Of a DNA stretch of 32,000 bases, positions 183-28,032 are shown in pieces. Below the pieces are notes generated by a model, which worked only from the letters and a program-made list of their open reading frames with translations, was not told the origin of the DNA and searched no databases. The position numbers and the translations under genes were made by a program. The stretch's first letter is position 1; each line of letters starts with the position of its first letter. The DNA is from Ignicoccus pacificus DSM 13166 (GTDB taxonomy: Archaea > Thermoproteota > Thermoprotei_A > Sulfolobales > Ignicoccaceae), in the NCBI GenBank assembly GCA_025340205.1, contig CP006868.1, positions 270,001 through 302,000 of the forward strand, read 5' to 3'.

Positions 183-216
183 CCTTCCACGGCCTTTTCA
201 TTTCGGTGAAGAAGAG

Positions 217-795: not shown

Positions 796-806
796 GGTGA
801 TAGAGC

Positions 807-2936: not shown

Positions 2937-2950
2937 ATTAATTTAAAAAA
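2937..2950 (+). promoter_or_regulatory. Candidate TATA box for the 2983..4659 gene
   Basis: ATTAATTTAAAAAA is centred about 39 nt upstream of the ATG at 2983. Confidence 0.3.
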
Positions 2951-2982
2951 GTAGACTTTCTGGATTTCGGGGACTCAGGGCT

Positions 2983-5662: not shown

Positions 5663-5730
5663 CCTTTGAAGAGAAGAACTCCAAAGTTTATTAAACCTTA
5701 CCTCCCATGGAGGCTCGGATGAAATAAGGT

Positions 5731-5879: not shown

Positions 5880-5917
5880 CACCCGGAAGGGGTCCCCCGG
5901 GCTCCTAACCTCCTCCC

Positions 5918-6619
5918 TTATCCTAGATAGGGCCACAAGTCGCCATACCACTTTATCGTTGAAGTAAAGGGATCGAAGTACATTCCATGAACTCTTACCT
6001 CGACTCCCATCGAGACGCTTTCCAAGAGACGGTCGAGGACCTCCGGATCTCCCTTGAGGTAAGGCCTGAAGCAGCAAGCGCCCGGAAAGCCCGCTATGAA
6101 GGTAACTACCGCCCTATTCCCCTTCCTCACGAACTCACCCAACTCTAACAAGTGCCTCTTTCCCCTCTCCGTAGGGCAGTCCGGCCACATCGCCTCGTTG
6201 AAGGGTCCTTTGAGGTCAGCGCTCTTCAGCTCCACGATGGTTCTAGTTCCGTTGCATGAGAATTCAAAGTCTGAAAAGCCCTTGCCGAGCCTAGGCCTTC
6301 TCCTAACGAATGAGCAGTCCTTGAGCCAGTGGATTAAGTTCATTTCGTAGGCCTTCAAGAAGGCCATCTCTTGGAGGTTGGTGTCTACTACGGCGAAGCC
6401 TCCGTCCCTAACTTGAGCTGCTACTAGCTTGTACTTGGTCTTCCCTGAGCTCTTAGAGGAACAATAAGCTAGGTTTCCTTCCCAGATGAGGTCCTCCAGC
6501 CTTCCGGTGTTCGTGTTGTGGACCTTCGCTTTCTCATTACCTATTCTGGCTTCTATTACGAAGCGGTTAAGCTTTCTTATTATTGTGCAAGGAAGTGTTT
6601 CTAGTTTGAGAAGTTGCAA
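5918..6619 (-). CDS. sfsA: SfsA-family (sugar fermentation stimulation protein homolog) nuclease-fold DNA-binding protein
   Basis: Motifs are 'LNRFVIEA...VHNTNTGRL', 'SDFEF...IVELKS' and 'WPDCPTERGKRHLLEL...RAVVTFI', which align by eye with E. coli SfsA 'FPDAVTERGQKHLREL'. Confidence 0.8.
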   Translation of the reverse strand: MQLLKLETLPCTIIRKLNRFVIEARIGNEKAKVHNTNTGRLEDLIWEGNLAYCSSKSSGKTKYKLVAAQVRDGGFAVVDTNLQEMAFLKAYEMNLIHWLKDCSFVRRRPRLGKGFSDFEFSCNGTRTIVELKSADLKGPFNEAMWPDCPTERGKRHLLELGEFVRKGNRAVVTFIAGFPGACCFRPYLKGDPEVLDRLLESVSMGVEVRVHGMYFDPFTSTIKWYGDLWPYLG

Positions 6620-6668
6620 GGTCTCAGCCTACCGTTCAACTTGATTTTCTGATGAAAATACTGGAAAA

Positions 6669-7769
6669 TTATATGGGAATGGGGACAAGCGTTCCAAAGC
6701 CCAATTCCCTTAGATCTCCTGCGCCCTCTCTATAGAGCTTGTGCCAGTCATCACAATTACCATAAAACAATCCCTTCCATATACCATGTCTGAACCCCCT
6801 CGGTCTGTTTTTCGCGAGACTCCAGCCTAAGCTGAAGGCATCAACTTCAACGCGATAAGGTGGAACTATAGATTTTAGGAAGTCTTCCTCTTTTGGAGTA
6901 AAGTGTTTTATTTCGTTTTTCAGTAGCTTCTCGATTTTTTCTCTTAATTGTGCAAATGAAGAGGAACGTACGTTTAGTGGTTCCTTGAAGAGTAATGGTG
7001 TGGCTATTAGTAGTAAACATTCGCCTCCATTTCTTCCATTCCAAAGGTGAGAGAGTTCTTCTTCTATCAAGTTCTTTTTAGAAAGCTCTAGTCTAGCTGG
7101 CAATCCTTCCCCGCCGAAACCTAGTATTGTTTTTTCTTCATGTCTTAAATCACCATATATATCCGCTACTATGGAACCCATTATTATTTTCTTTCCTTCT
7201 TGCACTGCGATATACCTTCTTTCTTGAATATAGATCATACCTTTGGAACTCTCAATTCCCGTTTGCTTTTTCGTTCTATGGAGAGCTATTCCGGTCAGTT
7301 CAGTTGCTCCTATTTGAGGTATTGGTCGTTTCATTACTTCAAACAAGTTCTTAGACTTTGATGGTATAAGAACCTCTCTTTTTAGTAGATCCTCAATTTT
7401 CTTTCCACTTCTTTCAAGCTCCTTTACTAGTTTACGTAGTCCCAGGATAGGAGTCCCATCAAAAGCTGTGAGCTCCTTGGCCTCACCCTCTTCAAAGATA
7501 GCGAATGCTCCGGTGAGCCTTTTCACGCCAAGCTTTTCCAAGCATTTTTTCACATCGCTTAGAATCTCGAAATTTTTATCGTCCAATTCTTTGCAAGAAG
7601 AATCTCTCTGATAGACGATTTGAGCTAGAGCTCCAGCTAAAGTCGTTGGGGGAGGAAGAGGGTAGCTTAACGAGTAGGTGACGCTTCCCCTTGTCTGAGG
7701 GCTGAAGTTTCCCGGCTTCCTAAAGCTGGAACTACCTAGTGGTCTAATTATTACTCCCATCTCGATCAC
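6669..7769 (-). CDS. cmr3: Type III-B RAMP subunit Cmr3 (Cas5-like)
   Basis: The N-terminus 'IIRPLGSSSFRKPGNF...SYPLPPPTTLAGALAQ' matches the Cmr3 pattern (l.fRd.rpF...s...P.P.T.aGA). The C-terminal glycine-rich 'GAGDLRELGFGTLVPI' is also typical. The start overlaps the cas10 stop. Confidence 0.75.
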   Translation of the reverse strand: MIEMGVIIRPLGSSSFRKPGNFSPQTRGSVTYSLSYPLPPPTTLAGALAQIVYQRDSSCKELDDKNFEILSDVKKCLEKLGVKRLTGAFAIFEEGEAKELTAFDGTPILGLRKLVKELERSGKKIEDLLKREVLIPSKSKNLFEVMKRPIPQIGATELTGIALHRTKKQTGIESSKGMIYIQERRYIAVQEGKKIIMGSIVADIYGDLRHEEKTILGFGGEGLPARLELSKKNLIEEELSHLWNGRNGGECLLLIATPLLFKEPLNVRSSSFAQLREKIEKLLKNEIKHFTPKEEDFLKSIVPPYRVEVDAFSLGWSLAKNRPRGFRHGIWKGLFYGNCDDWHKLYREGAGDLRELGFGTLVPIPI

Positions 7770-10700: not shown

Positions 10701-11101
10701 CTTTTTCTCTTTGTAAGTAACCAACGATCAAGAGATGAGGCTATTTGATCGTAGCCCCATTTACTTTTACCACCTGTATACTTTTCTATTATCTCTATTA
10801 TCTCGTCTTCACTGAGTAATGATGCAAATAAATACTTTATTACTACAATAGCTTCTATTTCATGCATTCTTTTTCTGGAGTACTTCTTGTCATTACTCTT
10901 CTTTTTCCTTTCTTCATAGAACTTATATATCAGATTGTTTTTGTCCTCACAATTGTCTTCACAATTCTTGCTTACCCTTTTTGCCCATCTACCTTCACTT
11001 CTATTTATTATCCATGGCTTGTGAAACGGATCATGAAGATAGGCTACTATCTTTTTCTTAAAGAATTTAGTTTTATCAAGCTTGCTGCTCACTGTTATCA
11101 T
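7766..11101 (-). CDS. cas10: Cas10/Cmr2, type III large subunit (HD domain, Zn finger, two Palm/cyclase domains)
   Basis: 'AYLHDPFHKPW' (HD at 11030-11035) is the Cmr2-type N-terminal HD motif. The treble-clef cysteines 'CRCG...CPYCLIKR' are present. 'IIRADGDNMN' and 'IYAGGDDLLALAP' (GGDD at 8567-8578) are the Palm motifs. The protein is 1111 aa. Confidence 0.9.
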   Translation of the reverse strand: MITVSSKLDKTKFFKKKIVAYLHDPFHKPWIINRSEGRWAKRVSKNCEDNCEDKNNLIYKFYEERKKKSNDKKYSRKRMHEIEAIVVIKYLFASLLSEDEIIEIIEKYTGGKSKWGYDQIASSLDRWLLTKRKRENIFNFPHLVNITNPDFLHENDKEVYPLVQKMYQFYNLLKSLLGATKCDEEDSTDCLRKKYHVLYAFAEPLWYGIVGVPPVAETRVPHHTIFDHLSATAQMVNVIWNRKWKGYMIKLKIENVQEFISNSRGPVDLWASSWLVSALMWCTIREVVEKIGPDTMLLPTARFNPFYLHMVNNKFLKGLLLDNDDDLAESTPRRESNESRSKHRSHSNYLLNPEHPVMPATATLLLPPLDIAKELLEKDITSWSEYFGEKFRGCWEKFASKIFEFVKENLHDYYNTCEENRVSCELTKEKIEEMIGNTVKVPPLPLSIVEIKLEDAWKEYEDIFKKHIENNKELNELLEKYNINEGEEKSKKGNQKDELKKKLFFHWLWANKLRRESFDAVKLDLSRLNLLGNDPKVARVECRCGLPAIIKNRSDDPIKVLKRNNGEFVINSEKGIVLIREREALCPYCLIKRILGYEWYLNLGLFESLLDAALKIKTRRSVDLLNLALSTQLEELVKRERKRNGKSTDTIKVEIEEANGKKNSTDYQLDELIEKMIQTVSLENTFLKQDTVKIVRVLDPVTRNYIIVKGDILQEIKEAILKARKYYAIIRADGDNMNLILTGKLTEDPNDKNRYFESFKKSLLSKNSSEAKRIEEIINTMKDVTRFSDVLNPEEIGARRGIPTIVVTPSYLAQISYSTMVGAVIDTALIENEYEGTTIYAGGDDLLALAPVKKLNEKGAYSPPLYIWETTRAAYWGFESESLTSFEDNEEDNKIELKDGFKKITVKIKMKGDSRELPLGALAPALIAYGRKYGIAVKHYREPLVLALRDARRLADEKGKKPTKVFPDGWVIRKDGIAIAYRNIDNSTTLPNTTFAKKKLELPLANITKKGLGLIFVKDVLSRQAFYDAAEALREFDCRTCDPNIALLFEYVVRKNMRKRNCETELWLKEVVEKLMKEHGKAYASNSDKVEMVCLPKELARFLLIWSNTLR

Positions 11102-11666
11102 CCTCCTTTATGTAAGCTTCAACTAATTTCTTGAGTTCGATAGAGTATTCAATTACCATTTTTTCTAATATAGATCTTGAAGTTCCATCCCACATTAATA
11201 TTTCCTCTAACAAATCTAATAATCCACAAAAGTTAGAGGTAGTTCGAAATTCTCCCCTTCCTAACTTTCTTCCTATGTGTTCTATTGCTGAGACATAACA
11301 CGCTAACGCTATGCTGTAGCTGACCTTCTCGGTCTTTGATTCAAGATCATTTAGAGTAATGCTTTCCGCAACTGAAAGAGCATTATCTGGGTTTCTAAAA
11401 TCATTAATGATACTCTCGAAGGTCTTTGGATCCGATTTCGACATGTAAAATGTTAGGGTTCGGAGGAGCCCATCAGAGCTAGCCATAGATGGGAATGACC
11501 TCACTCTACTCCTAACTCCCTTCTTCATTGCTATCTTTGTTTCTTCCTTAATTTTCCCGTCCACTTTTTGTAAATCATCAAAGGTATTCTTTATGATTCC
11601 TGCATGCCTCACGGCAAGTAATATTAAATCGAGGTCGGAGGGTTCCGATGTCAAAGTCCTTTTCAC
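11076..11666 (-). CDS. cmr5: Type III small subunit Cmr5 (Cas11)
   Basis: 196-aa all-helical protein between cmr4 and cas10. 'VRSRVRSFPSMASSDGLLRTLTFYMSK' fits the Cmr5 pattern (lr..v..lP.mI..nGL..tlaFl.sK). The helical C-terminus 'IEYSIELKKLVEAY' also fits. Confidence 0.6.
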   Translation of the reverse strand: MKRTLTSEPSDLDLILLAVRHAGIIKNTFDDLQKVDGKIKEETKIAMKKGVRSRVRSFPSMASSDGLLRTLTFYMSKSDPKTFESIINDFRNPDNALSVAESITLNDLESKTEKVSYSIALACYVSAIEHIGRKLGRGEFRTTSNFCGLLDLLEEILMWDGTSRSILEKMVIEYSIELKKLVEAYIKEDDNSEQQA

Positions 11667-12712
11667 CTCAGCAGGAACTTAAGCATTCCCTTCCCTAGCG
11701 TCTCCTTTCCTCCTAATGCTAGATCGAACTCCACTGGGCCTCTTGTCTTGTTGTCTTTTGAGAGTAGGCGCTTGAGTACCTCTATCGGTTCTTCCTTCAC
11801 TAATGTCATTAGCTCCTCTTCCTCTGACACTTTTTTGTTATTGTTATCAGAAGAACTCTCACAATATTCGTTTTCAAATCCTCTTGTACCTATTAGGCCA
11901 GTGAATACCGTACCATGAGGTAGGTATTCTTCTTTCCAAACTCCTCCTCGTTGAACCGTCTTTTTCCTATAGTTTAATCTAATCCTTGTAACCCTAAACA
12001 AGGCCTTCTCTATAATATTTACTATGTCTGCATCCTCAAAGAGGTAAACTTTAGTGTGTTGGAGGAAAGGTATTAGATTAGAAATGTCCTCTTTTTTACT
12101 GCCAAGAACCCTAGCCATCCTCTCTTCGATTTCATCGTCTAATTCAACTGCTTCGAACTTCTCTAATTCTACAAATACTTTTTTCTTTTCCTTGTTTTTG
12201 ATGGAGTTTGGATCTATATTCAAATCTATACCATTAAGCTTAGCTCTAGAGAGAAGATAGGGACTAGTTGCATAAGCGAAAACATCATTTAAACTCGGAA
12301 AAGGAATGAATAGGGGATAGAGATCGCCTAGTATGAGCTTTGATGCACCCTTCTCCGTATCTTCGGGTTCATGGCCTAATAGACAGCAGATGAGGTTACA
12401 CGTATTAACATTCTCTTTTTTGTTTGATTGATTTTCACTTTTCTTAACTTCACACTTAACCCTTCCACCACTATCCAAACATCTAAACTTTCTTGCCAGT
12501 GATGACTTCAATGAACCTTTAAACGAAGACGCTGGAATAAAAGGTATTCCGAAGGGATCCCTTATTATTGGGAGATCTACGACTCCCCTGCTTCCTTCGG
12601 CTCCAACGTGAACGTGAGTCAACGCTATCGCAAGCAAGGGTGAGGTTTCCTTCAAGGAGTTTGACCCATCTATCCATTTGGACGGTAAGTTATAAAGAGT
12701 TCTTTGATTCAC
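11663..12712 (-). CDS. cmr4: Type III-B backbone RAMP Cmr4 (Cas7); the true start may lie about 25 codons downstream
   Basis: 'ALTHVHVGAEGSRGVVDLPIIRDPFGIPFIPASSFKGSLKS' includes the catalytic-Asp context and the P.IPgSSlKG motif. 'CNLICCLLGHE' and the C-terminal 'LGGKETLGKGMLKF' G-rich loop are also present. The annotated GTG start is only 14 nt from the divergent gene. Confidence 0.8.
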   Translation of the reverse strand: MNQRTLYNLPSKWIDGSNSLKETSPLLAIALTHVHVGAEGSRGVVDLPIIRDPFGIPFIPASSFKGSLKSSLARKFRCLDSGGRVKCEVKKSENQSNKKENVNTCNLICCLLGHEPEDTEKGASKLILGDLYPLFIPFPSLNDVFAYATSPYLLSRAKLNGIDLNIDPNSIKNKEKKKVFVELEKFEAVELDDEIEERMARVLGSKKEDISNLIPFLQHTKVYLFEDADIVNIIEKALFRVTRIRLNYRKKTVQRGGVWKEEYLPHGTVFTGLIGTRGFENEYCESSSDNNNKKVSEEEELMTLVKEEPIEVLKRLLSKDNKTRGPVEFDLALGGKETLGKGMLKFLLR

Positions 12713-12726
12713 TTACTTGATAGAAG

Positions 12727-13299
12727 TTGAGCGTTCTCCAGAGCCCTTTAGCGGTCGCTTACCTTCATGGCAAGATATTGTGTAAGATCATAGAAGATAA
12801 TACAGATGAGAACTTTCAGAAGGCCCTTAGATCAATACTCCGCTCCCTTCCTTCGGAGCTTAGCGATTCTGGCTACATTGGTGTTCTATCCATGAAGCTT
12901 TACAAGACATGGGAACAATCAAGCGTTCTCGCAGATCTATACCTTGATCTCTTGCCAAGTGTTGACTTGGAAAGGAATAAGAAAGAAGATATCGAAAAGA
13001 GTATTGAGAATGTAAAAACAAAGATAATAAACCTTATACAAAATACGGCAGATAAAAGAACTCTCGCCGAGAGCCTCGTTACATCAATGCTAATCGTGGC
13101 CTTAGCTACGCTTAATCCATCTTGCAAGAAGTGTCTTGATATACAGCTCAGCGTCGCTCTAAGGAAGCTTTTGAGCGGGAAGTGCTGTAAAATACCGGAG
13201 AGAGCAATTCTTCTGTACTCGGAGGAGATGAAGAAGTTTGTAGACGGAATAGTCCAAGTGGAGGAGGGAAAGGACAATGAGTCTCGAGATCGACTTTAA
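12727..13299 (+). CDS. Helical protein, candidate second Cas11/Cmr5-like small subunit
   Basis: 190 aa with a TTG start. 'ALRSILRSLPSELSDSGYIGVLSM' parallels 'VRSRVRSFPSMASSDGLLRTLTF' of the neighbouring Cmr5. The C-terminus 'ILLYSEEMKKFVDGIV' parallels 'VIEYSIELKKLVEAYI'. Confidence 0.4.
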   Translation: MSVLQSPLAVAYLHGKILCKIIEDNTDENFQKALRSILRSLPSELSDSGYIGVLSMKLYKTWEQSSVLADLYLDLLPSVDLERNKKEDIEKSIENVKTKIINLIQNTADKRTLAESLVTSMLIVALATLNPSCKKCLDIQLSVALRKLLSGKCCKIPERAILLYSEEMKKFVDGIVQVEEGKDNESRDRL

Positions 13300-14830
13300 T
13301 GAGTATCTCAGAAATGATCAATTAGAAGATCCCCCTCTGGAATTCTTAGGCACCTTCGTAAATATAACTCCCTACATGGGCGGTAGCTTTGACAACGGCA
13401 AAACGTTCAGAGGCAACCGCTTCATAGGTCATCCTACAGCGCAAGCAATAAAGGCGAGAGCTCGTTACGCCTCCTTACTCGCGCTAACTTCTTTCATTAC
13501 TAGTCCTCAAAGTTACAAGGATGCATTCAAAATAAAAGTAATTATCGAAGGAGATAAAGAAGAAATTCCCTTACTCTGTTTGATCTATGGTTGTGTAGAC
13601 TCTCATCAATTCGGTTCCCCCTTTCACTTGATAGTTAAGAACGTAAGGGGAGCCAAGAAGTGGCGCAACGCCGGAAACAGGAAAGCGAAAGATAGGTACA
13701 ATGCTATTCTAAGAAGAAACGATAAGAGAATGGAGTTAGCTCCTGCAGAAACCGGTACTGTAAGTTTTGAGTTACACGTCTCCGTTGATGAGGATAGATT
13801 GGTCTTATTAGAACTCACTCCTAGAGAGATCGAGATACTTAAGGAAATATTCGAATCAAGCGTTCTCGTAGCGCTATCTCTCTTCGGTATAGGAAAGGCA
13901 GCTAGCCGAGGATTCGGACGCTTCTGGAAAAAAGACGAAGAGCTAACTTTTGAGAAACTGATAGAAAACGTGGAAAAGTTGTTGGAACATTGGAAAGAGC
14001 TATTAAGCAAATTAAAGAAGTCAGATAAGCTAAAAATATATAAAGATGAGATCGAACTAAAGGATGATTACTCAAAGGATATTATTATTGGAAAGGTTCC
14101 CCACTTGGGATTCATTCCAAGGATAAAGACCGAGTTTTCAAACGAACTCTTCATGAGATCTAGAGCTCCAATTGATACTAAGATAGAGATGATTGCTAGG
14201 GCAGTGTTGAAGTCCAATTGGAGAAGAAGGAGTTCCGGAGGCGGAGCTCGCTTCCACACGTGGCCTCTAGGTCTCCCAAGGTCCTCAAAGATCAAATGTA
14301 CATGCTATGGATATGATGGGAATTATCAAAGATACGGATACTTCGTAACAAGCATGATCAGTCCCACGAGAGAAATCGCTTGTGAACACTCTAGACCTTG
14401 CGGAGGCTCAAACATCCCAACAACGGAAGATAGGCACCAATCCATGGTTTACTTCATTCCATTGAAGGAAGGAATAGTAATAGTTCCTTTCTTCACTGAT
14501 GCAATGAAAGATGAGCTGATATTTACGAGAACTGCTCGGAAACTTTACCATGTTGGAGGAATCTTCGTTGAAGGTAAGCCTTGCTGTAATAGAAGGTTCA
14601 TAAGCGTTTCGAGGGTGCTTCTTGGAAGAGACCCAATCAAGTTCCCAGAGGCTCGCGAAGGATGTGATTGTGGAAGCGAAAGACTGGGAATAGCAAGGCC
14701 GCCGAGAAGGTCCCCGAGGTTAATGAATGAGGTTACAAAAGGCAGTCGAGGTAGAGATGATCGATTATATAGGGAAGCGTTGGCAGCATCACTGGAATGG
14801 ACAATCTTCGTACTAAAAAGAAGATTCTAA
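13277..14830 (+). CDS. cmr1: Cmr1-like RAMP (Cas7-family) with a compositionally distinct Cys/Arg/Gly-rich C-terminal extension
   Basis: 'FVNITPYMGGSFDNGKTFRGNR...PTAQAIKARARYASL' fits the Cmr1 pattern (TPlf.gG...R.psiKG.lRfw.Ra). The G-rich loop is 'LFGIGKAASRGFGRFW'. From about aa 310 the composition changes (RRRSSGGGARFHTWPLGLPRSS, several CxC/CC pairs). Confidence 0.55.
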   Translation: MSLEIDFNEYLRNDQLEDPPLEFLGTFVNITPYMGGSFDNGKTFRGNRFIGHPTAQAIKARARYASLLALTSFITSPQSYKDAFKIKVIIEGDKEEIPLLCLIYGCVDSHQFGSPFHLIVKNVRGAKKWRNAGNRKAKDRYNAILRRNDKRMELAPAETGTVSFELHVSVDEDRLVLLELTPREIEILKEIFESSVLVALSLFGIGKAASRGFGRFWKKDEELTFEKLIENVEKLLEHWKELLSKLKKSDKLKIYKDEIELKDDYSKDIIIGKVPHLGFIPRIKTEFSNELFMRSRAPIDTKIEMIARAVLKSNWRRRSSGGGARFHTWPLGLPRSSKIKCTCYGYDGNYQRYGYFVTSMISPTREIACEHSRPCGGSNIPTTEDRHQSMVYFIPLKEGIVIVPFFTDAMKDELIFTRTARKLYHVGGIFVEGKPCCNRRFISVSRVLLGRDPIKFPEAREGCDCGSERLGIARPPRRSPRLMNEVTKGSRGRDDRLYREALAASLEWTIFVLKRRF

Positions 14831-14894
14831 GCGAAAGGTCCTCGAAGGAAAAAGATAAAATAAGGGAAACGAAAGTTCTTTTGGATGGAAACAT

Positions 14895-15911
14895 ATGGCA
14901 TATGCCATCCCCTTTAATATAAATGAAATACCTCAAAGGTACGAAATATTTGAAAAATTAAACTTATTCTATAATGAGAGTGCTACTTTTCTCTCAAGGG
15001 TGTTGAATAGAAATGAAAACGATCTTCTAACGTTGTTCCATGAGAATGGTAGCTTCCTCTTCGAAACTTATCTAAGAAAGATAATGTTCATTGAATACAA
15101 AGGAAATATAATGACCTTTGAGGGCCCTCCTGGAAGCGGAAAGTCCACAGCACTCTTGTCACTCACAATGGGAGGATCGGACTTTTACCTTGATGGTAAT
15201 CGAAACGAAATTAACGAAATTTTTAGACAAAGACCCATATTTCCTTTGGCTATTGTTGATGTTCAAGTAGTTCCAGAAGAAGATAGCTTATTCTCTTGGA
15301 TCGAGGGATATATGAATAATTATTTATCGATATTATTTGACCATTTTGAGAGAAGTTCATGTCCTACAGAAGCTATGGAAAGGGTAGAAATTACAAAAAA
15401 GACGTTTAATGAAGTGGCAAGATCACTAGGATTCTTAATGCTCGATAAGGATCAATTAGCACAAACGATGGCAACCGATCTCAGCGAATATATTGACAAC
15501 TTAAAGAAGATATCAAAAAGTGGGATGGAATTTAGAGAAAATTACTTAAAATTTGCTAGAGAGCTGCGATTACTACTTAAAGAACTACGGGCTACAGAAC
15601 ATTATCCCTTACTCCTCTTCGCTTTCGATAATGTAGAAAGCAATCTTAAGACGTTTAGAGAAATTATGACACTCTGTAAGCTAATCTCAGTAGATCCCTT
15701 GAGCTTGTGTATCTTAGCCATACGTGATTACAGACCTCTTTTGCCAGCACTCCTTAGTTGGGATGCATGGGAAAATTTACAATACCTAAACGATATCACT
15801 GCGGAACGTGATGAGATAGCGTATGAGCTATTATATAGAATTACAATACTCGATGCAATAAACACCATTGAGAAGCTCTTTCTACCTCAATATATTATAA
15901 AGTTTAGGTAA
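14895..15911 (+). CDS. P-loop NTPase of unassigned family, embedded in the cmr operon
   Basis: Walker A is 'FEGPPGSGKSTALLSL' (15123-15149). The Walker-B candidate is 'YPLLLFAFDNVE'. It has the same strand and AT-rich composition as the cas genes. Confidence 0.6.
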   Translation: MAYAIPFNINEIPQRYEIFEKLNLFYNESATFLSRVLNRNENDLLTLFHENGSFLFETYLRKIMFIEYKGNIMTFEGPPGSGKSTALLSLTMGGSDFYLDGNRNEINEIFRQRPIFPLAIVDVQVVPEEDSLFSWIEGYMNNYLSILFDHFERSSCPTEAMERVEITKKTFNEVARSLGFLMLDKDQLAQTMATDLSEYIDNLKKISKSGMEFRENYLKFARELRLLLKELRATEHYPLLLFAFDNVESNLKTFREIMTLCKLISVDPLSLCILAIRDYRPLLPALLSWDAWENLQYLNDITAERDEIAYELLYRITILDAINTIEKLFLPQYIIKFR

Positions 15912-15953
15912 CATTGTCAGTTAACTTATACTTCATAATGGAGGTGTGAATCC

Positions 15954-17375
15954 ATGAGATTAACTACTCCGAATGAAATACTTCAACAAGATGAATATGG
16001 TGTACTCTACGTTAAAGAAGTATGGGAAGATTTACAAGAAATATTTAATAGAGATAGAAGGGGCAGAAGGAGAATATATCCCATAGATAGAATTACAAAT
16101 CTCTTAGAGAGGAATGTGCCAGAGTTTAGGGAAAGGTACGAAAACTTGTTTTACGAAACGTTCGAAGGCCTCGGGCTCAATGAAACTTTAAGTAGAGAGC
16201 TCTATGAATTGTTGTTCTCTCAAGAAAATCATGATCAAAGAAGTTCCCTAACAGGCGTTATTAAGATTTTCCTTGAATTAGTGTTTCGTGCTCCGTTTTC
16301 AGAAATCTTTATCTCCCTTCGTTGCAAGGAGAAACTCTCGATTATCTATGATACTTTCCAAGATATGGAGGAGAACCGAGAGGAGTATATTAAATCGTCG
16401 ATAATTCACCTTGCTAGACAGTGTTTCCCTTACTCGTTCTTTGCAAACGATACGATTTACGTTTTCCACCAAAGTGATTTAAATGAGTTATACAATATGT
16501 ACTTTAACGATACTGTTCGAAGAAATACTGATGCAATTAATTTAGACACTTTGTTCAGCTTTAGTACCGTTAGTACCGATGGTGAGGGAGAAGAACAAGC
16601 AGAAGTCTACACGGAAATTAGGAGGTTGTTAGTATCTCCTTATCAATTGGTTGTACTGTTGGAAGAGTATATAAGAAACGAGCCTTATTCTAGGGTAATA
16701 CATGAAATTCTTAATTACACTAGTAGACCTAGGTTCGGAGGAGGAATAGGAAAATACTCTATAATCGAACACGTAATCTCAGAGCCCGGAAGAAATCTAT
16801 ATATCGAGCCATTCCTACATCCCCATCCCAAAAGAGCTGTAGAAGTTCTCTTTTATCACGCAGTGTTCTATTCATGGCTAGAGAAACTACTTCAAGCATG
16901 GTTTGAGATAATTAGGTTTAATGTTACTAACACAAATGAATCAAGAATGATAAATAACTTTATCCTTATCATATCACTAATTTACATTTATCTGTTATTG
17001 ATTCATGTTAAAAGAAGAATAGGGAACAGAGATGTTATCGTACCTACCGTTAAAGACCACCTCATAGTCCTCTTTACCCTGATTACTTTATTACACAGAG
17101 CTCCATACAATGAAATAAGAGATATCTTGCTTGAAAACAATATATTAGCTATTGTTGGAGGTGAAAGAGAAAATATCCTTGGAGATCAATTTGGAGGAAC
17201 TACATATAGAAGATACATCCTCTTCCTCTTGAACATAATATACAATGACACAGTAAGGATTGTTGATATTCGCGATCAGTTAACCGATCCAGAAGTTCTC
17301 CTCACTATAGGCTACGTTAGACGTAAACTCCTCGATATTCAGAGGTTCTACAACCCACCAAGAGAGGAGGGATGA
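15954..17375 (+). CDS. Uncharacterised 473-aa protein with one or two hydrophobic segments, embedded in the cmr operon
   Basis: A long ORF with GGAGGTG 6 nt upstream of the ATG. Its stop overlaps the start of the deaminase gene (ATGA). Hydrophobic stretches are 'MINNFILIISLIYIYLLLIHV' and 'LIVLFTLITLL'. I recognise no catalytic motif. Confidence 0.5.
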   Translation: MRLTTPNEILQQDEYGVLYVKEVWEDLQEIFNRDRRGRRRIYPIDRITNLLERNVPEFRERYENLFYETFEGLGLNETLSRELYELLFSQENHDQRSSLTGVIKIFLELVFRAPFSEIFISLRCKEKLSIIYDTFQDMEENREEYIKSSIIHLARQCFPYSFFANDTIYVFHQSDLNELYNMYFNDTVRRNTDAINLDTLFSFSTVSTDGEGEEQAEVYTEIRRLLVSPYQLVVLLEEYIRNEPYSRVIHEILNYTSRPRFGGGIGKYSIIEHVISEPGRNLYIEPFLHPHPKRAVEVLFYHAVFYSWLEKLLQAWFEIIRFNVTNTNESRMINNFILIISLIYIYLLLIHVKRRIGNRDVIVPTVKDHLIVLFTLITLLHRAPYNEIRDILLENNILAIVGGERENILGDQFGGTTYRRYILFLLNIIYNDTVRIVDIRDQLTDPEVLLTIGYVRRKLLDIQRFYNPPREEG

Positions 17376-19615
17376 GGATGAATGGTGTCTTGAGACTGCC
17401 ACATTTCTACAACAATTTGAGAGACTCCTTGAAAGCAATTCTCATAGTCCCTATTAATCTCACTAAACATGAACATTCTGAGGAAATTATTAATGAGATA
17501 AATAAATGTTATCAAGGTCTAATAAGAGGGAGGGGACGACGGTTAGAGACTTGCAGAAAAGTAGTTCAACTAAGTGGCATGAAGAACGTCGTCGGAGAGA
17601 CGAAACTCAAGAAGTTCTTAGCCGATCGAATGTTAAATGATCCCCCTCCGTTCTCTCCCCTATACCCTCTTAGGATTGATTTGATCAACTCCATTCTAGA
17701 TTATATAAATACAGAAGTAAAGAAAGCAGTTGGAAGAGAACTTTACAATCTTAATCTATATGATGCTGATTATTCAACCTTGTTTAAGGCACTTACTGAT
17801 GGAATAATCCGGAATATCCGCGGTGTTATAAACGTCAATGATGTTACCGAGCTTATCATACTCAGTAGGAGAATCCCCATAGAACACCTAAGTTGGCAAC
17901 TTTCTCCAGGATTTCTACGAGAAGTGACAGATGAACATGTTCATTTAGGAGCATCCTTAACTCCTCTGTCAGCTTTCTTCCACGTGAGTTACTTCATCTA
18001 TTCCCTTCCTCGCAACATCGTGAAGAAGACTAGTAAATACTCGAGCTTTTTGAGTGAGAACTTCTTCAAACTTCTGGAAGTGCTCCCGATAGCGCGCATA
18101 GCTCTTGAAGCTTGTTTAGAAAGAAATGTACCTTCTATCTTTAGTGATAATGAAGAAGTTAATAAGAAAGCGATTAGAGAATACTTAGAGACGCTCTTGA
18201 GCAAAAACGTAGTAGAAGAAGAAAGACTATTGGTACGTGATGTTCTTTTGAGAAATAAATGTTCGATTGAATTTCTAATATACGAATTGATATCATCATC
18301 CCTAGTCTCCTCAATAGTTCAGAACGACCTCTATACCGGTCTGAGCAGCTTCAGCATGTTCTACAGTCGTGGCAGCACAGCAATAAAAGCGATCAGGAAA
18401 GCAGTTAAGAACAGTATCGCGAAAAACGCCAAGAGACGTTACGTTAAGATAATAGAACACTTCCACGGGACGATGGATGAGGTTATCGGAACTAGATTAA
18501 CCGTCCGCTTTAAGATATCTGCAGAGGATTTTTACAAGAACTTTAAGATAATAAATAACTTCAAGAGGTTAAGTTCCCAGAAATACTTTCTAAGTTATGT
18601 AAAAAGACCTTTTAAAAATGAACGGAAGAGAGCACTGCGTTCTCTTCTTGACGACATGTATAAGGAAGCGTACTACTTCAAGCTAGTTCTTGAAAATTAT
18701 GAGAACGCTAAGAAGATAGTATTAGGTCCTGATGTAGCCGGAGTTGAGGAACACGTGCCTAACTGGATTGGGGTTAGGTACGTGAGCATGACTACCGAAT
18801 TTATGACCGAGAAAGGGGTTCCCTCTATCATAAGCTATCATGCTGGGGAAAGTTACTTCAACGTCTTCAACGGCCTTCGTTCAATGTATGAGGTAATAGA
18901 ATTTGGAGGGTTAAGGAGCGATGATAGAATAGGTCACGCCTTAGTTCTCGGAGACACAGAAGTCATGAACAGTTACATAGAAAATGCTTGGGATGCCCTC
19001 TTCGATCTCGTTTTCATTCGCTTGTTTCTAGAAAGGGAAATGCCACACCTAGTGAATCAGCTAGAAGGTACCTTTAGACAAGTGATCTATAAAGTCAGAA
19101 GAGAAGGGATGGAAATACAGCCAGAACTACTAATGGAACTTTGGAAGGATCTGTTTGATGAGGAAAGGTTAAGGTATCTCCTCTTCCATTCCAGCTATCC
19201 TGCACTTTCCAACGGTTACTACTATAGTGTGGTAAATAATTTCAAGATGAGAGAGGTTGAAGAAGAGATATTGGAAGTATTCAAGCACTATTTCAATAGC
19301 TGGCATAAGACTCAATCAGTTGATCTTATTAAAGTTCTGCAGAGATCGTTCTCAGAAGATCAAATAAGGGAGATAGCTACAAACATCAGAGAGTTTCTGA
19401 TGGAGTTAGTGAAAAGAAAAGGTATATTCATCGAAAGTTGCCCTACATCAAACATCATAATAAGGCACTTGAGTTCACATCCGCTTGGTCTATTTAAAGA
19501 AAAAGAATTGAAGGTGGGAATGGGAACAGACGACCCGTTGATTCTAAATACAGAGCCTTTTATAGAGCAAGGCATATTTAACAAACTTCTTGAAGAAGTA
19601 GACATGACAAGGTGA
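17372..19615 (+). CDS. Adenosine/AMP-deaminase-fold metallohydrolase with an N-terminal ~185-aa domain of unknown type; candidate CRISPR-linked nucleotide deaminase (Cad1/RdrB-like)
   Basis: The full deaminase signature is present in the canonical order: 'EHVHLGAS' (H189/H191, nt 17936-17944), 'SYHAGESY' (H490/E493, nt 18839-), 'DRIGHALVL' (H522), 'ESCPTSNI' (690-694) and 'GMGTDDPL' (D720/D721, nt 19529-19534). Confidence 0.8.
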   Translation: MRMNGVLRLPHFYNNLRDSLKAILIVPINLTKHEHSEEIINEINKCYQGLIRGRGRRLETCRKVVQLSGMKNVVGETKLKKFLADRMLNDPPPFSPLYPLRIDLINSILDYINTEVKKAVGRELYNLNLYDADYSTLFKALTDGIIRNIRGVINVNDVTELIILSRRIPIEHLSWQLSPGFLREVTDEHVHLGASLTPLSAFFHVSYFIYSLPRNIVKKTSKYSSFLSENFFKLLEVLPIARIALEACLERNVPSIFSDNEEVNKKAIREYLETLLSKNVVEEERLLVRDVLLRNKCSIEFLIYELISSSLVSSIVQNDLYTGLSSFSMFYSRGSTAIKAIRKAVKNSIAKNAKRRYVKIIEHFHGTMDEVIGTRLTVRFKISAEDFYKNFKIINNFKRLSSQKYFLSYVKRPFKNERKRALRSLLDDMYKEAYYFKLVLENYENAKKIVLGPDVAGVEEHVPNWIGVRYVSMTTEFMTEKGVPSIISYHAGESYFNVFNGLRSMYEVIEFGGLRSDDRIGHALVLGDTEVMNSYIENAWDALFDLVFIRLFLEREMPHLVNQLEGTFRQVIYKVRREGMEIQPELLMELWKDLFDEERLRYLLFHSSYPALSNGYYYSVVNNFKMREVEEEILEVFKHYFNSWHKTQSVDLIKVLQRSFSEDQIREIATNIREFLMELVKRKGIFIESCPTSNIIIRHLSSHPLGLFKEKELKVGMGTDDPLILNTEPFIEQGIFNKLLEEVDMTR

Positions 19616-20493
19616 GAGTCGAAATGAACGGTAAACGGCCGGATCTCATAGCGTTCGAGGAATTTGTGAAGACCATCGTTGACGCTTATGAGAACCCTGA
19701 GGGAGCTGCTTCGATGATAAAGAACCTCAAACGAAGTATAATATTGAAGCTGGAGAGTGAGACCCTAGACTACGTACCTAAGATATTCGAGCTCATAAGG
19801 AGGCTAAACGAGATGAAGAAAGAAGCGTTGAAAAGAAACGGATATTGGGTAGGATATGTTCAAGCGAAATTAGTCTCTCCAGGTCTTGTAGGCTCTAGTG
19901 AGGGCATCTTCAAAACTGTGTTCGAAGTTGGACTAACCCTTGACAAAGTGTTGGGCGTCCCCTTCTACCCCTCTTCGTCGGTAAAGGGGGTGGTCAGATC
20001 TAGGATTAAAAATATGCTAGAAAAAGAAGATAAAAATGTAGAGGAAGTCGTACAAGAGCTTTTCGGAGATATGGAAAGCGAAGGAAACGTGATTTTCATG
20101 GATGCTTACCCGATTGGCTGTATAGAGGAGCAATGTTCCTTATTCTCAGGAGCGGTGATTACTCCTCACTACTATAAAGGAGGCCAAGTAGTAGATAATG
20201 AACTTGGAGTTAAACCCGTTCCTATTCCACACCTTGTTGTCTCTCCAGGTTTGGTATTTGAGTTTATAATAGGAGTTAGGCGTGATGGAGGATATACGAA
20301 CACTATAAAGATGCTAGGAAATGGAAGCATAAGAGCTCATGAAATACCTCAAAAAGTTCTAATTAAGATCATGAGTTTATTAGTCGAAGAATTACAGAAG
20401 GGAGCCTTCGGTAGGGCTAGTAAGGGTTTCAACGTATTTGAGCCCGATAAAGGGTTAATCCCCAGTCAAGTGAGGGCATTAGGGATTCTATAG
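19612..20493 (+). CDS. cmr6: Type III-B RAMP subunit Cmr6 (Cas7-family)
   Basis: 'KLVSPGLVGSSEG...GLTLDKVLGVPFYPSSSVKGVVRS', 'VITPHYYKGG' and the G-rich 'GAFGRASKGFNVFE' match the Cmr6 pattern. The GTG start overlaps the deaminase stop (GTGA); an alternative ATG is at 19624. Confidence 0.75.
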   Translation: MRVEMNGKRPDLIAFEEFVKTIVDAYENPEGAASMIKNLKRSIILKLESETLDYVPKIFELIRRLNEMKKEALKRNGYWVGYVQAKLVSPGLVGSSEGIFKTVFEVGLTLDKVLGVPFYPSSSVKGVVRSRIKNMLEKEDKNVEEVVQELFGDMESEGNVIFMDAYPIGCIEEQCSLFSGAVITPHYYKGGQVVDNELGVKPVPIPHLVVSPGLVFEFIIGVRRDGGYTNTIKMLGNGSIRAHEIPQKVLIKIMSLLVEELQKGAFGRASKGFNVFEPDKGLIPSQVRALGIL

Positions 20494-20795
20494 AGAATTT
20501 ACTACATCTTCTCCAAATGTTATAAAGAGAAAGTATTTCTTGAGAAGTGTGTTACCGTCAGGAGCTCTCCAGATGTAAAGACGATTCTATGAGATACTCA
20601 CATCAAAGATAAATAGATATGTGAATAGCATGGAGGATCAAGCCATTTTAACCCTTTCAAATGGCTAGCAAGCTGTTTTTACTTTTTACTATTTATAATA
20701 ATAGTGTTTTCTTGGTAATACTTTGTCTATCTGTCAGTGTAGTTTTTCCACATCGATAATTCTGAAATTATCTTTAGAACCATTGAGAGGCACCA

Positions 20796-21562
20796 CTTTC
20801 TATTCACTCTTGTAACTCTTCATGGTATAAGACATGTTGCTACGCTTCCCGGCATTCCTGATGCCTTTCTATTCACTATTGTAACTCTTCAAGGGCCCTA
20901 GAGCTCCTGAGCAGCCCCAAGCTGATCCTCTCGCTTTCTATTCACTATTGTAACTCTTCCTACCGACTTCATCAAGGATCAAGTGAGCTCAAAGATCCAG
21001 GACTTTCTATTCACTATTGTGACTCTTCAGGTGAGAAGATGAAAATCGTCGAGACCAAGAAGCTCCCTTATCCTTTCTATTCACTATTATAACTCTTCAT
21101 CTTTATCATTGTATATTATAGATAGTGTGAGCAGTAAGACTTTCTATTCACTATTGTAACTCTTCGATGGTTCGACTACGACCTCGGACACGATAGATCT
21201 GGGCTTTCTATTCACTATTGTAACTCTTCCTCAAGCTGGCTGAGTACTACGCGGAGCTGGCAAAGAAGACGCTTTCTATTCACTATTGTAACTCTTCCTC
21301 AATCGACCTAGAGAATTTGACCATGGCCGTAGAGCCGAAGACTTTCTATTCACTATTGTAACTCTTCAAAGCATTGAAAAGCTGAAGACCGAGTGCCGGG
21401 ACAAGGTTGACTTTCTATTCACTATTGTAACTCTTCGACTTCATTGTGGCGTTGGTAGGAGAGCCGGGCTGCCTTTCTATTCACTATTGTAACTCTTCGC
21501 CCTAGATCATCCCCTCGAGGCTGGGACTGGATCATACTTTCTATTCACTATTGTAACTCTTC
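20796..21562 (-). CRISPR. CRISPR array with 12 repeats of 26 nt and 11 spacers of 36-44 nt; probably transcribed from the minus strand
   Basis: The plus-strand repeat is CTTTCTATTCACTATTGTAACTCTTC, starting at 20796, 20865, 20934, 21003, 21073, 21140, 21204, 21272, 21342, 21411, 21473 and 21537. Variant repeats are R1 (A>C, CACTCTTG), R4 (GTGACTC) and R5 (ATTATAAC). The reverse complement GAAGAGTTACAATAGTGAATAGAAAG ends in ATAGAAAG, like the ATTGAAAG 8-nt crRNA tag of archaeal repeats. Confidence 0.95.
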
Positions 21563-21650
21563 CGTGACCCTCCTATTTAACTAGCCCTTCCTTTCACTAA
21601 TAAGCCATTCCTTTCCCATTGTCTTGATTTGGTTACTTTATTAACTCTGA
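21563..21650 (-). promoter_or_regulatory. Candidate CRISPR leader/promoter, assuming minus-strand orientation
   Basis: This AT-rich flank is adjacent to perfect repeat R12. On the minus strand it carries TTAATAAAG (21636-21644) and TTAAATAG (about 21572-21579). TTAATAAAG resembles the TATA-like elements upstream of both tRNA genes. The degenerate repeat R1 lies at the opposite end of the array. Confidence 0.4.
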
Positions 21651-22088
21651 ATACTTAAGCTTTCATGAGAACAGTTTTGCTCCACTTCCATCAATTAGAA
21701 TTACCTAACCAAAACTAATGGTCAAACAAAAGAGTTCATTATCATCGGCGTTCCCATGTGTGTGGCAATGGAAAGATTAGTTTAGCCTTTAAAATGAATT
21801 GAAGAATTTGTATTCAAAGACGAATAGAGCTCAAGGTGAAGGGAAGAAAGGATACCATAAATGTCCTAATGTGTGATCATTGAGAAGTGTAAATAATAAG
21901 GAATGAGAGTAGTGATGGGGATTTATGGAAATGGTTGACTTAGAAGGAAATAGAATGAAAATGGTATAACTAAAGCTAGGACAAGATCGAAGGGAGCTCT
22001 TGGAAGGGTAAGAACTCACAGGTGTGAAATGATAAAGGTTCCGGTATTCTCCGCTTCTTCAAGAAGTTCACGAAAGGATAGGGCGCCT

Positions 22089-22165
22089 TGGTGGGGCCGC
22101 CGGGATTTGAACCCGGGACCACCAGCGCCCCAGGCTGGCATCCTACCAAGCTAGACGACGGCCCC
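22089..22165 (-). tRNA. tRNA-Pro (anticodon GGG), no intron; the 3' CCA is encoded
   Basis: The minus strand reads GGGGCCG-TC-GTCT-AGCTTGGTA-GGAT-G-CCAGC-CTGGGGC-GCTGG-TGGTC-CCGGG-TTCAAAT-CCCGG-CGGCCCC-A-CCA, a hand-folded cloverleaf. Confidence 0.9.
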
Positions 22166-27564: not shown

Positions 27565-28032
27565 GTGGCCCTCTCCAAACCAATTCCCAAAGACATAACC
27601 GAAGAGCTCTTCAGATACCGCTTAGAGCAAGCTGAGGAAGAGGTTAAGCTTGCTAAGAGGCTCTTGAAGGAAGGTTTCATTAGGAACGCCGCTGGTAAGG
27701 CCTTCCAAGCCTGGAAGGAACTGCTCGGAGCTTACATCGTCAAGCACTATGAGGACCTCAAGGGCTTCTACAGCGAGGAAAAGTTGAAGAAGTTAGCTTT
27801 ACTCGTTCCGACCACGAAGATGAAGGAAATAAGCAACAAGTTGGCTCAAGTTGGGGAAAGGGAACTAACTGCTTGGACCGATAAGGCCCTCTCCCTCCAT
27901 AGGTTCCAATATAACGGCCCAGATCCAGACTTGGCCCTAAGCGATTACAGGAGCGAGGAGGAAGCTAGAGAGGATATTGAGATATTGATTGGGGAGATAG
28001 AGAGGAGAGTGAGAGAACTTAGGAAAGGTTGA
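27565..28032 (+). CDS. PaREP1-family-like (HEPN-like helical) protein
   Basis: 'EEVKLAKRLLKEGFIRNAAGKAFQAWKELLGAYIV' resembles the conserved core of archaeal PaREP1 proteins as I recall it. The start is GTG. Confidence 0.4.
   Translation: MALSKPIPKDITEELFRYRLEQAEEEVKLAKRLLKEGFIRNAAGKAFQAWKELLGAYIVKHYEDLKGFYSEEKLKKLALLVPTTKMKEISNKLAQVGERELTAWTDKALSLHRFQYNGPDPDLALSDYRSEEEAREDIEILIGEIERRVRELRKG

Follow-up and report, generated by a model that had tools for sequence, protein, structure and literature searches.

Within a 32-kb stretch of the genome of Ignicoccus pacificus DSM 13166 (hereafter the window, i.e. the whole stretch of DNA that was analysed), we found a gene cassette that resembles the RADAR defence system and is inserted between cmr1 and cmr6 of a complete type III-B (Cmr) CRISPR module. 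The cassette comprises three open reading frames (ORFs) annotated as hypothetical (IPA_01635, IPA_01640 and IPA_01645), whose products have 338, 473 and 747 amino acids (aa). Judged from their sequences, the first two proteins together constitute one RdrA-like AAA+ ATPase split in two, and the third is a diverged RdrB-type adenosine deaminase. The explanation we favour, at a probability of about 0.6, is that the cassette represents a highly diverged RADAR module that was captured as a module of type III-B immunity. Homology to both RADAR proteins is very probable in its own right; functional coupling of the cassette to Cmr, for which the gene layout speaks, has in our view slightly better than even odds.

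RADAR is said to have been described by Gao et al. in 2020. It consists of the AAA+ ATPase RdrA and the adenosine deaminase RdrB, and the structures 8fnv and 8hr7 served as our reference (PMC9994260). A heptamer of RdrA docks on a dodecamer of RdrB, and ATP and dATP are converted to ITP and dITP upon infection (PMC9994260). An initial annotation of the window had proposed a RADAR-type pair of an ATPase and a large deaminase among the Cmr genes, and the profile, structure and context tests reported here bear this out. The observations on which it was built proved accurate too: the ORF list places three genes on the same strand between cmr1 and cmr6 (Table 1), their composition is as AT-rich as that of the cas genes, a P-loop Walker A motif and a full adenosine deaminase signature could be located in the 338-aa and 747-aa proteins, respectively, and the junctions are as tight as described. 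What has to be revised is the role of the 473-aa protein, which had been listed as a third component without recognisable motifs and instead is the C-terminal part of the ATPase, with a motif (PRCL) of its own and fused to the N-terminal part in the closest relatives.

The catalytic motifs of the deaminase are complete (HVH at residues 189-191, HAGE at 490-493, RIGH at 519-522 and TDDP at 719-722). Residues H189/H191, H490-E493, H522 and D720/D721 are invariant in three aligned members of the clade described below, and, according to a motif scan, the fourth member (P0006) likewise has the complete set of four motifs. Two RdrB models match the 747-aa protein, namely NCBIfam NF041744 (6.8e-17, 61.3 bits) and PADLOC RdrB (5.1e-16, 56 bits). 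Since 61 bits is far below the curated NF041744 equivalog cut-off of 800 bits, we regard the deaminase as a remote member of the RdrB family and not as an equivalog. Generic adenosine deaminase models (Pfam PF00962, TIGR01430) cover just its last 50-60 residues. When the PDB was searched with the deaminase sequence, the RdrB chains 8fnv, 8fnw and 8hr7 ranked top; a family-profile search likewise placed 8fnv/8fnw first, over about 400 residues (deaminase 320-714 versus 356-760). Canonical deaminases aligned over about 60 C-terminal residues in these searches, and no Cad1 chain was among the matches. Besides, all of the 58 nearest representatives of the deaminase match RdrB models. For profile-profile comparisons, five RADAR-type reference loci were taken from plasmids, of which the one from Aliivibrio is annotated as rdrA/rdrB and another carries a SLATT gene. 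With hhalign, the deaminase matched the five RdrB proteins at a probability of 99.8% (E 2.4e-29, 410 columns), against 0.1% in the cross-controls (ATPase versus RdrB and deaminase versus RdrA).

In canonical adenosine deaminases (ADA; mouse ADA numbering), about 15 residues lie between the N-terminus and HxH, about 199 between HxH and HAGE, and about 57 between RIGH and DD. The same intervals span 141-189, 272-301 and 197-215 residues in the clade embedded among cmr genes, and 162-179, 348-420 and 224-248 residues in the five RdrB proteins. RdrB differs from the bare ADA core by three additions: it is extended at the N-terminus, one insertion splits the core, and a further insertion follows the last catalytic histidine (PMC9994260). 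By its motif spacing, the I. pacificus deaminase reproduces all three, i.e. the N-terminal extension plus two large insertions. An AlphaFold2 model computed from a three-sequence alignment reached a predicted local distance difference test (pLDDT) score of 44, and a Foldseek search of the PDB with this poor model returned eight RdrB chains (6e-9 to 9e-6) ahead of a next match at about 0.1, which we count as weak corroboration of RdrB identity.

Together, these data support the 747-aa protein as a diverged RdrB-type deaminase that is neither Cad1-like nor housekeeping. A housekeeping adenosine/AMP deaminase was rejected on account of the canonical models reaching only about 60 C-terminal residues, the protein being twice the canonical size, and the RdrB-type insertions. 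Membership in the Cad1 family was rejected as well, given that the PADLOC CARF5-CARF_ADA match is confined to residues 436-531 of the deaminase (profile 404-485) at 23 bits; searches of Pfam and NCBIfam returned no CARF domain in this protein. The initial annotation had named a housekeeping clade as the alternative to be excluded and had suggested profile and Foldseek comparisons with RdrA, RdrB, Cad1 and CARF/SAVED domains. NCBIfam, PADLOC, the PDB and hhalign all place the protein with RdrB, and the comparisons turned up RdrB- and RdrA-like features, no Cad1 chain and no CARF or SAVED domain.

As for the ATPase, the 338-aa protein carries a Walker A motif (GPPGSGKS, residues 77-84, with K83), an insertion at about residues 130-235, a Walker B motif (FDNVE, with D245/E248) and, with D278, a candidate sensor 1; K83, D245/E248 and D278 are conserved. 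When the 338-aa and the 473-aa protein were used as queries in word-indexed homologue searches, each found itself alone, and relatives were reached via the neighbours of related deaminases. Among these, the single 844- and 876-aa ATPases of two loci (L001 and L002) align with the N-terminal part over residues 10-351 at 30-32% identity (E 1e-37 to 1e-40). In hhalign comparisons, the N-domain profile matched the five RdrA proteins at probabilities of 97.2-98.1% (E 4.6e-11 to 1.2e-13, 158-194 columns), and the best of these matches (98.1%, E 1.2e-13, 194 columns) pairs residues 69-294 with RdrA residues 60-254. It spans Walker A, the beta2/3 'IDP' element, the long helical insertion, Walker B (FDNVE versus IDDVD) and the sensor-1 region. 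Four generic AAA+/P-loop controls (McrB-like, Vps4, HerA and ParA) aligned over 25-45 columns at the P-loop, with probabilities of at most 80%. In Escherichia coli RdrA, the corresponding landmarks are K82, D221/D222 and D253, and a 'crown' insertion of four helices makes the contact with RdrB (PMC9994260). K82, D221 and D253 correspond to K83, D245 and D278 of the I. pacificus protein, and the distance from Walker A to Walker B is 162 aa here versus 139 aa in E. coli RdrA (K82, D221). A low-confidence model predicts the insertion to be helical. The AlphaFold2 model of the N-terminal part, computed from a single sequence (pLDDT 36), was unusable for searches. Taken together, the alignments support an ATPase N-domain that is specifically RdrA-like.

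The 338-aa and 473-aa ORFs share one reading frame and are separated by two in-frame TAA codons (15909-15911 and 15936-15938), after which a Shine-Dalgarno-like GGAGGTG (15940-15946) precedes the restart ATG at 15954. Single ATPase proteins of 838-876 aa occur in L001, L002 and a further locus, L016. The combined length of the two parts in the window is 811 aa, and in position the 473-aa ORF corresponds to the C-terminal halves of the single-chain ATPases in L001 and L002. In a multiple alignment, the consensus P-R-C-L-x-K-[LI]-Y, with substitutions (PRYL in L011), was present and collinear in eight of eight family members; its version in the 473-aa ORF reads LRCKEKLSIIY (residues 121-131). 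An independent split was found in the stand-alone locus L011/L012, with parts of 357 and 403 aa in different frames, the second of which again carries the motif. Based on the stops, the Shine-Dalgarno-like sequence and the independent split in L011/L012, we consider the fission real and tolerated, and the cassette to hold two functions, not three. Two other interpretations of the 473-aa ORF were rejected, namely that it is an independent third component (at odds with the fused single ATPases in relatives and the shared PRCL motif) and that the split is a sequencing artefact (at odds with the two stops, the Shine-Dalgarno-like sequence and the parallel split).

The 473-aa ORF itself had no match in Pfam, PADLOC, NCBIfam or the PDB, and the ATPase C-halves of L001 and L002 do not align to each other. 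It is hypervariable and constitutes the putative sensor domain, which may harbour a novel sensor fold. From the resemblance of the motif, we hypothesise that the PRCL arginine acts as sensor 2, in which case the two ORFs would form an obligate split AAA+ module; hhalign puts this arginine about 20 residues off sensor 2 of RdrA, without significance. The 473-aa ORF also contains a strongly hydrophobic 19-mer (residues 332-350, Kyte-Doolittle 2.36). One or two strongly hydrophobic 19-mers were likewise seen in the C-parts of the other archaeal-type ATPases, i.e. L011 (8755-9966; 2.53), L001, L002, L008 and L016. Four of the five bacterial RdrA proteins were without such a segment, and the one from Salmonella had weaker ones (1.66-1.89), all of them within its AAA+ domain at the N-terminus. 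The hydrophobic segments may be membrane anchors or buried helices, and the ATPase C-part, a separate protein in I. pacificus, is possibly membrane-associated.

How widespread is this arrangement? A word-index search with the deaminase found two relatives among 5.8 billion clusters (L001 and L002), and when 1.84 billion representatives were searched exhaustively with a profile, 3379 relatives came up at E <= 1e-3, about 1000 of them RdrB-like sequences at E < 1e-10. Only four members, among about 15 billion proteins, form a tight clade (>= 503 bits), the next protein scoring 194 bits; the four stem from I. pacificus, L001, L002 and L008. In L001 and L002, a cmr1-like gene is followed by the single P-loop protein (844 or 876 aa), the deaminase and cmr6, and the I. 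pacificus cmr1 is 41-44% (tblastn) or 42-47% (MAFFT) identical to the gene directly upstream of the ATPase in these two loci. L008 has the order ATPase C-part, deaminase, cmr6, with the contig cut inside the ATPase gene. Hence, ATPase, deaminase and cmr6 follow one another in all four clade loci, and cmr1 precedes the ATPase in all three that extend far enough upstream. The start of cmr6 overlaps the deaminase stop or lies within about 45 nucleotides (nt) of it. Across the clade loci, identities amount to 33-50% for Cmr1 and Cmr6, 29-44% for the deaminases and 27-34% for the ATPase N-domains. The arrangement is no chance juxtaposition, given that three further loci share the gene order in spite of their strong divergence.

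The next-nearest relatives with usable context comprise seven loci (L010, L011/12, L015, L016, L023/24, L025 and L026), none of which has cas genes nearby. The ATPase lies directly 5' of the deaminase in six of the seven, and the L026 contig ends just upstream of the deaminase gene. These stand-alone loci are the closest relatives of the embedded clade (E 2e-47 to 3e-26 with the deaminase profile, and 1e-14 to 1e-21 in BLAST with the ATPase N-domain), and L011 is assigned to an archaeon by virtue of CdvB and Vps4 being encoded nearby. With regard to the search for the cassette near cas genes that the initial annotation had suggested, the association therefore holds within the four-member clade, which is always embedded among cmr genes, and ends there: the seven nearest other loci stand alone, so the pair is not restricted to CRISPR contexts. 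Among the contig scans, the one with Cmr6 on metagenome contigs was the sole one to yield loci; scans of genome, metagenome and viral contig collections with the deaminase alignment found nothing, as did a Cmr1 scan of the genome contig collection, from which the source genome is seemingly absent. In the metagenomic loci whose Cmr6 is related (28-40% identity), cmr6 comes directly after cmr1, or after cmr5, i.e. the site is empty. In a neighbour-joining tree (no bootstrap), the four embedded deaminases are monophyletic and sister to the stand-alone group, with canonical bacterial RdrB apart, and the identity matrices of deaminase and Cmr6 give the same quartet, (I. pacificus, L001) | (L002, L008). 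This distribution is most simply read as one event in which a stand-alone pair was captured between cmr1 and cmr6, with long co-inheritance thereafter. The cassette is rare yet evolutionarily maintained.

The Cmr module into which the pair is inserted has the parts of a type III-B interference module: cas10/cmr2, cmr1, cmr3, cmr4, cmr5 and cmr6, plus an adjoining CRISPR array. The Cas10 translation retains an intact cyclase motif (YAGGDDLL, with GGDD) and shows an HD-like 'LHDPFH' at its N-terminus. Within the plus-strand operon, a 64-nt gap separates cmr1 from the gene for the ATPase N-terminal part, and an internal promoter before the cassette is possible given this gap. From there on, genes adjoin closely. 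The two ATPase parts are 42 nt apart (15912-15953), with GGAGGTG placed seven nt 5' of the ATG; the 473-aa ORF and the deaminase gene share an ATGA (17372-17375), just before which GAGGAGGG is found; and the deaminase gene and cmr6 share a GTGA (19612-19615), such that the cmr6 start lies inside the deaminase stop codon. From this layout we infer co-transcription and translational coupling, and control by the Cmr complex or attachment to it.

According to the explanation we favour, an ancestor of a small hyperthermophilic archaeal type III-B lineage would have captured the pair once between cmr1 and cmr6 and its descendants would have kept it since, with the module and Cmr6 being made from one transcript. 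The two ATPase parts would assemble into one AAA+ unit that docks on a deaminase oligomer in the way RdrA docks on RdrB. Recognition of a viral transcript by Cmr and its CRISPR RNA would trigger the variable C-terminal part of the ATPase, either by contact with the complex or through a Cas10 product, and the deaminase would then convert ATP/dATP to ITP/dITP and arrest the infected cell, as in RADAR and Cad1. In this locus, the module would stand in for the CARF/SAVED effectors of other type III systems. Activation of the deaminase by the ATPase and arrest through (d)ATP-to-(d)ITP conversion are proposed by analogy with RADAR and Cad1; substrate and assembly are likewise presumed, and the step from Cmr activation to the ATPase is the most conjectural of all. 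In its most specific form, the Cmr complex itself would trigger a RADAR-type machine, with target-RNA binding being read by the ATPase C-part, via contact with Cmr1/Cmr6 or via a Cas10 product bound in a new non-CARF fold, and the RdrB-like ATP deaminase being switched on in turn; we offer this version tentatively and rate its chances somewhat below even. The authors of the RADAR study themselves proposed the variable C-terminal region of RdrA as the sensor (PMC9994260).

Several observations weigh against this explanation. With respect to homology, the RdrA hidden Markov models (HMMs; PADLOC PDLC02216/02217) did not match the ATPase N-terminal part at E <= 0.1, nor did the PADLOC RdrA models match the ATPases of L001 and L002 at E <= 1, and an HMM-to-sequence search of the PDB with the ATPase ranked RFC first, above RdrA. 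The C-terminal parts showed no significant similarity to RdrA C-domains or to the PDB by BLAST or hhalign, and resemble one another in one motif only, L002 with L008 being the exception. Structural support is thin, both AlphaFold models being poor, and the 3Di+AA score of Foldseek in part reuses the sequence signal. As regards coupling, searches of Pfam, PADLOC, NCBIfam and the PDB detected neither CARF nor SAVED domains in the products of the cassette or in the rest of the window, and the cassette proteins showed no ligand-sensor domain of any other known kind. The nearest relatives presumably work without Cmr, so the module may keep a sensor of its own, and defence genes frequently cluster without functional coupling. 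The gaps 5' of the ATPase genes, 64-83 nt across the loci, could hold a promoter, even if no archaeal promoter elements convincingly common to them turned up in these gaps. Only four loci are known, two of them from one metagenome, and the agreement of the quartets would be expected by chance in one of three cases. Finally, L002, in which cmr4, cmr5, cmr1, ATPase, deaminase and cmr6 follow one another on one strand (1-16436), has no detected cas10 or cmr3 in the roughly 4.4 kb 5' of cmr4 and the roughly 3.3 kb 3' of cmr6.

The main rival explanation is an autonomous RADAR-like system that does no more than share the operon, senses infection through its own ATPase C-terminus, and owes its position to defence clustering and convenient co-expression. 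The closest relatives outside the four-member clade being stand-alone pairs, the pair is evidently self-sufficient; the ATPase C-part matches other RADAR-type proteins in its hypervariability, a typical trait of sensors that detect viruses directly and are subject to arms-race selection; and both the lack of a detected CARF or SAVED domain in the cassette and the 64-nt upstream gap as a place for a promoter of its own would fit. Yet all four clade members have retained the location between two structural genes in spite of their 29-44% identity, cmr6 starts at or close to the deaminase stop, and the clade is monophyletic with a branching that agrees with Cmr6, whereas a neutral hitch-hiker would be expected to have been lost or moved in some descendants. 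Among the rivals to a coupled module, this is the one to be taken seriously, even though we consider it unlikely.

Highly improbable is a role of the cassette as a modulator of type III signalling, in which ATP-to-ITP conversion near Cas10 would limit or reshape cyclic-oligoadenylate synthesis, be it as an off-switch or by providing inosine- or base-modified signals for an effector elsewhere. Cas10 keeps its GGDD motif and uses ATP, the window lacks an effector with a sensor domain, and dITP does serve as an immune signal in the Kongming system (10.1101/2024.12.20.629578). However, this idea is speculative, with no sequence feature to support it; RdrB and Cad1 act through bulk nucleotide conversion (PMC9994260, PMC11645235), and no HAM1- or KomB-like reader gene was found in the window. 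We give next to no credence to an RNA-editing arm, whereby the deaminase would edit adenosines in target RNA or other transcripts held by Cmr. The deaminase gene does adjoin genes of an RNA-binding complex, and the original report on RADAR, cited in PMC9994260, presented it as an RNA editor, but purified RdrB left a model hairpin RNA unedited under conditions that fully converted ATP (PMC9994260), and the fold is of the mononucleotide ADA/amidohydrolase type, not of the ADAR/cytidine deaminase type. A purine-salvage deaminase or a decaying remnant or pseudogene, which the two in-frame TAA codons and the rarity of the cassette might suggest, is largely refuted and retains a negligible chance in view of the size, insertions and short canonical match of the protein, the intact catalytic and Walker motifs, the perfect GGAGGTG before the restart ATG, the similar independent split in L011/L012 and the location of the cassette inside a low-GC defence island.

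When compared with known systems, the coupled module we favour is closest to RADAR. Both have an ATPase gene followed by a deaminase gene, the two overlapping or abutting, and the combined ATPase length is in keeping with RADAR loci. Both deaminases combine the ADA catalytic tetrad with an extension at the N-terminus and two large insertions, and both ATPases feature an N-terminal AAA+ domain, a long helical insertion between Walker A and B, and a fast-evolving C-terminal region (helical in RADAR), with profile-profile probabilities of 98-99.8%. The differences are considerable, too. While adjacency and gene order are those of RADAR, the cassette is not a stand-alone operon but sits between cmr1 and cmr6. 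Its ATPase consists of two polypeptides (338 + 473 aa), whereas RdrA is a single protein of ~850-1000 aa with an alpha-helical C-terminal domain. Divergence is extreme, the RdrB score being 61 bits versus an 800-bit cut-off and RdrA HMMs not matching at all. The deaminase has an insertion 2 that falls short of its counterpart in bacterial RdrB by ~50-120 aa, the ATPase C-parts have strongly hydrophobic segments that are not seen in bacterial RdrA C-terminal regions, the host is archaeal and hyperthermophilic, and there is no RdrC/RdrD (SLATT) gene. With Cad1/CAAD (PMC11645235, PMC12669630), the cassette shares an ADA-fold enzyme that is genetically tied to a type III system and, by analogy, an expected output of ATP-to-ITP conversion and growth arrest. 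In contrast to Cad1, its deaminase has no CARF domain (PADLOC CARF_ADA 23 bits versus RdrB 56 bits) and would need a partner AAA+ ATPase, and it is encoded inside the effector-complex operon, not beside it. The stand-alone archaeal-type pairs have the PRCL motif in common with the cassette, and L011/L012 shows the same kind of ATPase split; they differ in having no cmr genes nearby and, in some cases, a convergent ParA-like or a thymidylate-kinase-like neighbour.

The cassette also lacks the feature that marks a classical type III ancillary effector, i.e. a cyclic-oligoadenylate sensor of the CARF/SAVED kind. Non-CARF accessory genes in type III operons were catalogued by Shah et al. 2018 (PMC6546367), including clusters of AAA/ABC ATPases and operon-internal peptidases; non-CARF ATPases are thus a recognised class, and placement within type III operons has been read as co-function (PMC6546367). 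That catalogue, the main one of type III accessory genes, lists no deaminase and has no Ignicoccus entry (PMC6546367). The present cassette differs in that it represents a complete, otherwise autonomous defence system. RADAR-like systems have been reported to be genetically associated with Kongming KomBC (10.1101/2024.12.20.629578), the sole such association with another defence module in the literature searched. The initial annotation had supposed the arrangement to be undescribed, and indeed searches of the library, which is incomplete, turned up no publication that describes a pair of the RdrA/RdrB kind within an operon of cmr genes, so that an earlier description is possible.

The infection feature that induces RADAR has been stated to be unknown (PMC9994260). 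A RADAR-type pair in a Cmr operon suggests a testable trigger, namely target-RNA-bound Cmr and/or Cas10 products, and hence a handle that stand-alone RADAR lacks. If the Cmr complex itself is the trigger, the cassette would constitute a CARF-independent type III output and the first member of the RADAR family whose activation signal is defined and programmable. It would widen type III outputs beyond effectors with CARF/SAVED sensors, represent a second independent recruitment of ATP deamination after Cad1, and exemplify the capture of an entire autonomous defence system by another. Besides, the split shows that an AAA+ ATPase tolerates fission between its P-loop core and the remainder, twice independently. 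These prospects concern a very rare clade of four loci, and every functional step is conjectural.

Table 1. Features of the type III-B locus in the I. pacificus window (positions in the window; values are E-values unless stated otherwise).
Feature	Position	Strand	Basis and remarks
cmr3	6669..7769	-	last gene of the divergent cmr4-cmr5-cas10-cmr3 operon; Pfam Cas_Cmr3 4.5e-08
cas10/cmr2, 1111 aa	7766..11101	-	Pfam Cmr2_N 9.4e-26, Cas10-Cmr2_palm2 2.4e-12
cmr5, small subunit	11076..11666	-	PADLOC Cmr5 5.6e-14; Pfam Cas_Cmr5 7e-4
cmr4, Cas7 backbone subunit	11663..12712	-	Pfam RAMPs 3.5e-23; 33% identity to Cmr4 of L002
second, weak Cmr5-like small-subunit gene	12727..13299	+	PADLOC Cmr5 1.2e-4, residues 20-178; opens the plus-strand operon
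cmr1, 517 aa	13277..14830	+	PADLOC Cmr1 5.3e-12
split RdrA-like AAA+ ATPase, N-terminal part, 338 aa	14895..15911	+	
fission point between the ATPase parts	15912..15953	+	sequence and frame translation
split RdrA-like ATPase, C-terminal part, 473 aa	15954..17375	+	
RdrB-like adenosine-nucleotide deaminase, 747 aa	17372..19615	+	
cmr6	19612..20493	+	PADLOC Cmr6 2e-33; NCBIfam TIGR01898 1.6e-25, 90 bits versus cut-off 51
CRISPR array, 12 repeats x 26 nt, spacers 36-44 nt	20796..21562	-	repeat on the minus strand: GAAGAGTTACAATAGTGAATAGAAAG

The cas region forms an island of low guanine-plus-cytosine (GC) content (6600-22165; GC 0.36-0.43 versus 0.49-0.55 in the flanks), of which the cassette is the lowest part (0.36-0.40). 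The right edge of the island coincides with a tRNA-Pro(GGG) gene (22089-22165, minus strand), which suggests that it was acquired by integration beside this tRNA gene. The CRISPR array is probably transcribed on the minus strand, convergent with and towards the cmr6 operon, as indicated by the repeat end ...ATAGAAAG (...GAAAG) and by variant repeats at the left end, and its leader probably lies in the ORF-free stretch 21563-22088. Two Cmr5-like genes are present at the locus, a strong match on the minus and a weak one on the plus strand (Table 1). Only 14 nt lie between the start annotated for this second Cmr5-like gene and that of cmr4, which is divergent from it, so at least one of the two start codons is probably mis-set.

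Further observations concern the related loci. The PADLOC RdrA models also miss a 1027-aa protein of Cetobacterium (L007, 1430-4513) that directly precedes an RdrB-like gene, and they match the proteins in the RdrA position of Rhizobium and Aureibacter over the N-domain only. These cases indicate that RdrA C-terminal regions are hypervariable in bacteria, too, and that RADAR may be under-counted by current HMMs. Upstream in L002, we noted a HEPN/nucleotidyltransferase pair and a PaREP1 gene. Directly 3' of the deaminase gene, L010 (4309-5920), L023 (10580-12038), L024 (4044-5502) and L025 (2741-4223) carry a small ORF and a convergent ParA-like (AAA_31) gene, which may form a further associated module. 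In two archaeal-type genomes, a thymidylate-kinase-like gene (306-316 aa) adjoins that for the RdrB-like deaminase (L011, 12350-13300; L026, 2250-3170); in the deaminase-based Kongming system, phage nucleotide kinases act as triggers (10.1101/2024.12.20.629578).

Elsewhere in the window, a 558-aa WD40/beta-propeller-like protein without a defence-family match is encoded in a patch of lower GC content (2983-4659, plus strand; 0.41-0.44), separated from the cmr3 end of the island by two housekeeping-looking genes. A second low-GC patch (28019-30371, minus strand; 0.40-0.42) holds a 464-aa AAA_5 (McrB-like) ATPase gene and an overlapping gene for a 338-aa partner without a family match, and this pair may represent a McrBC-like restriction module.

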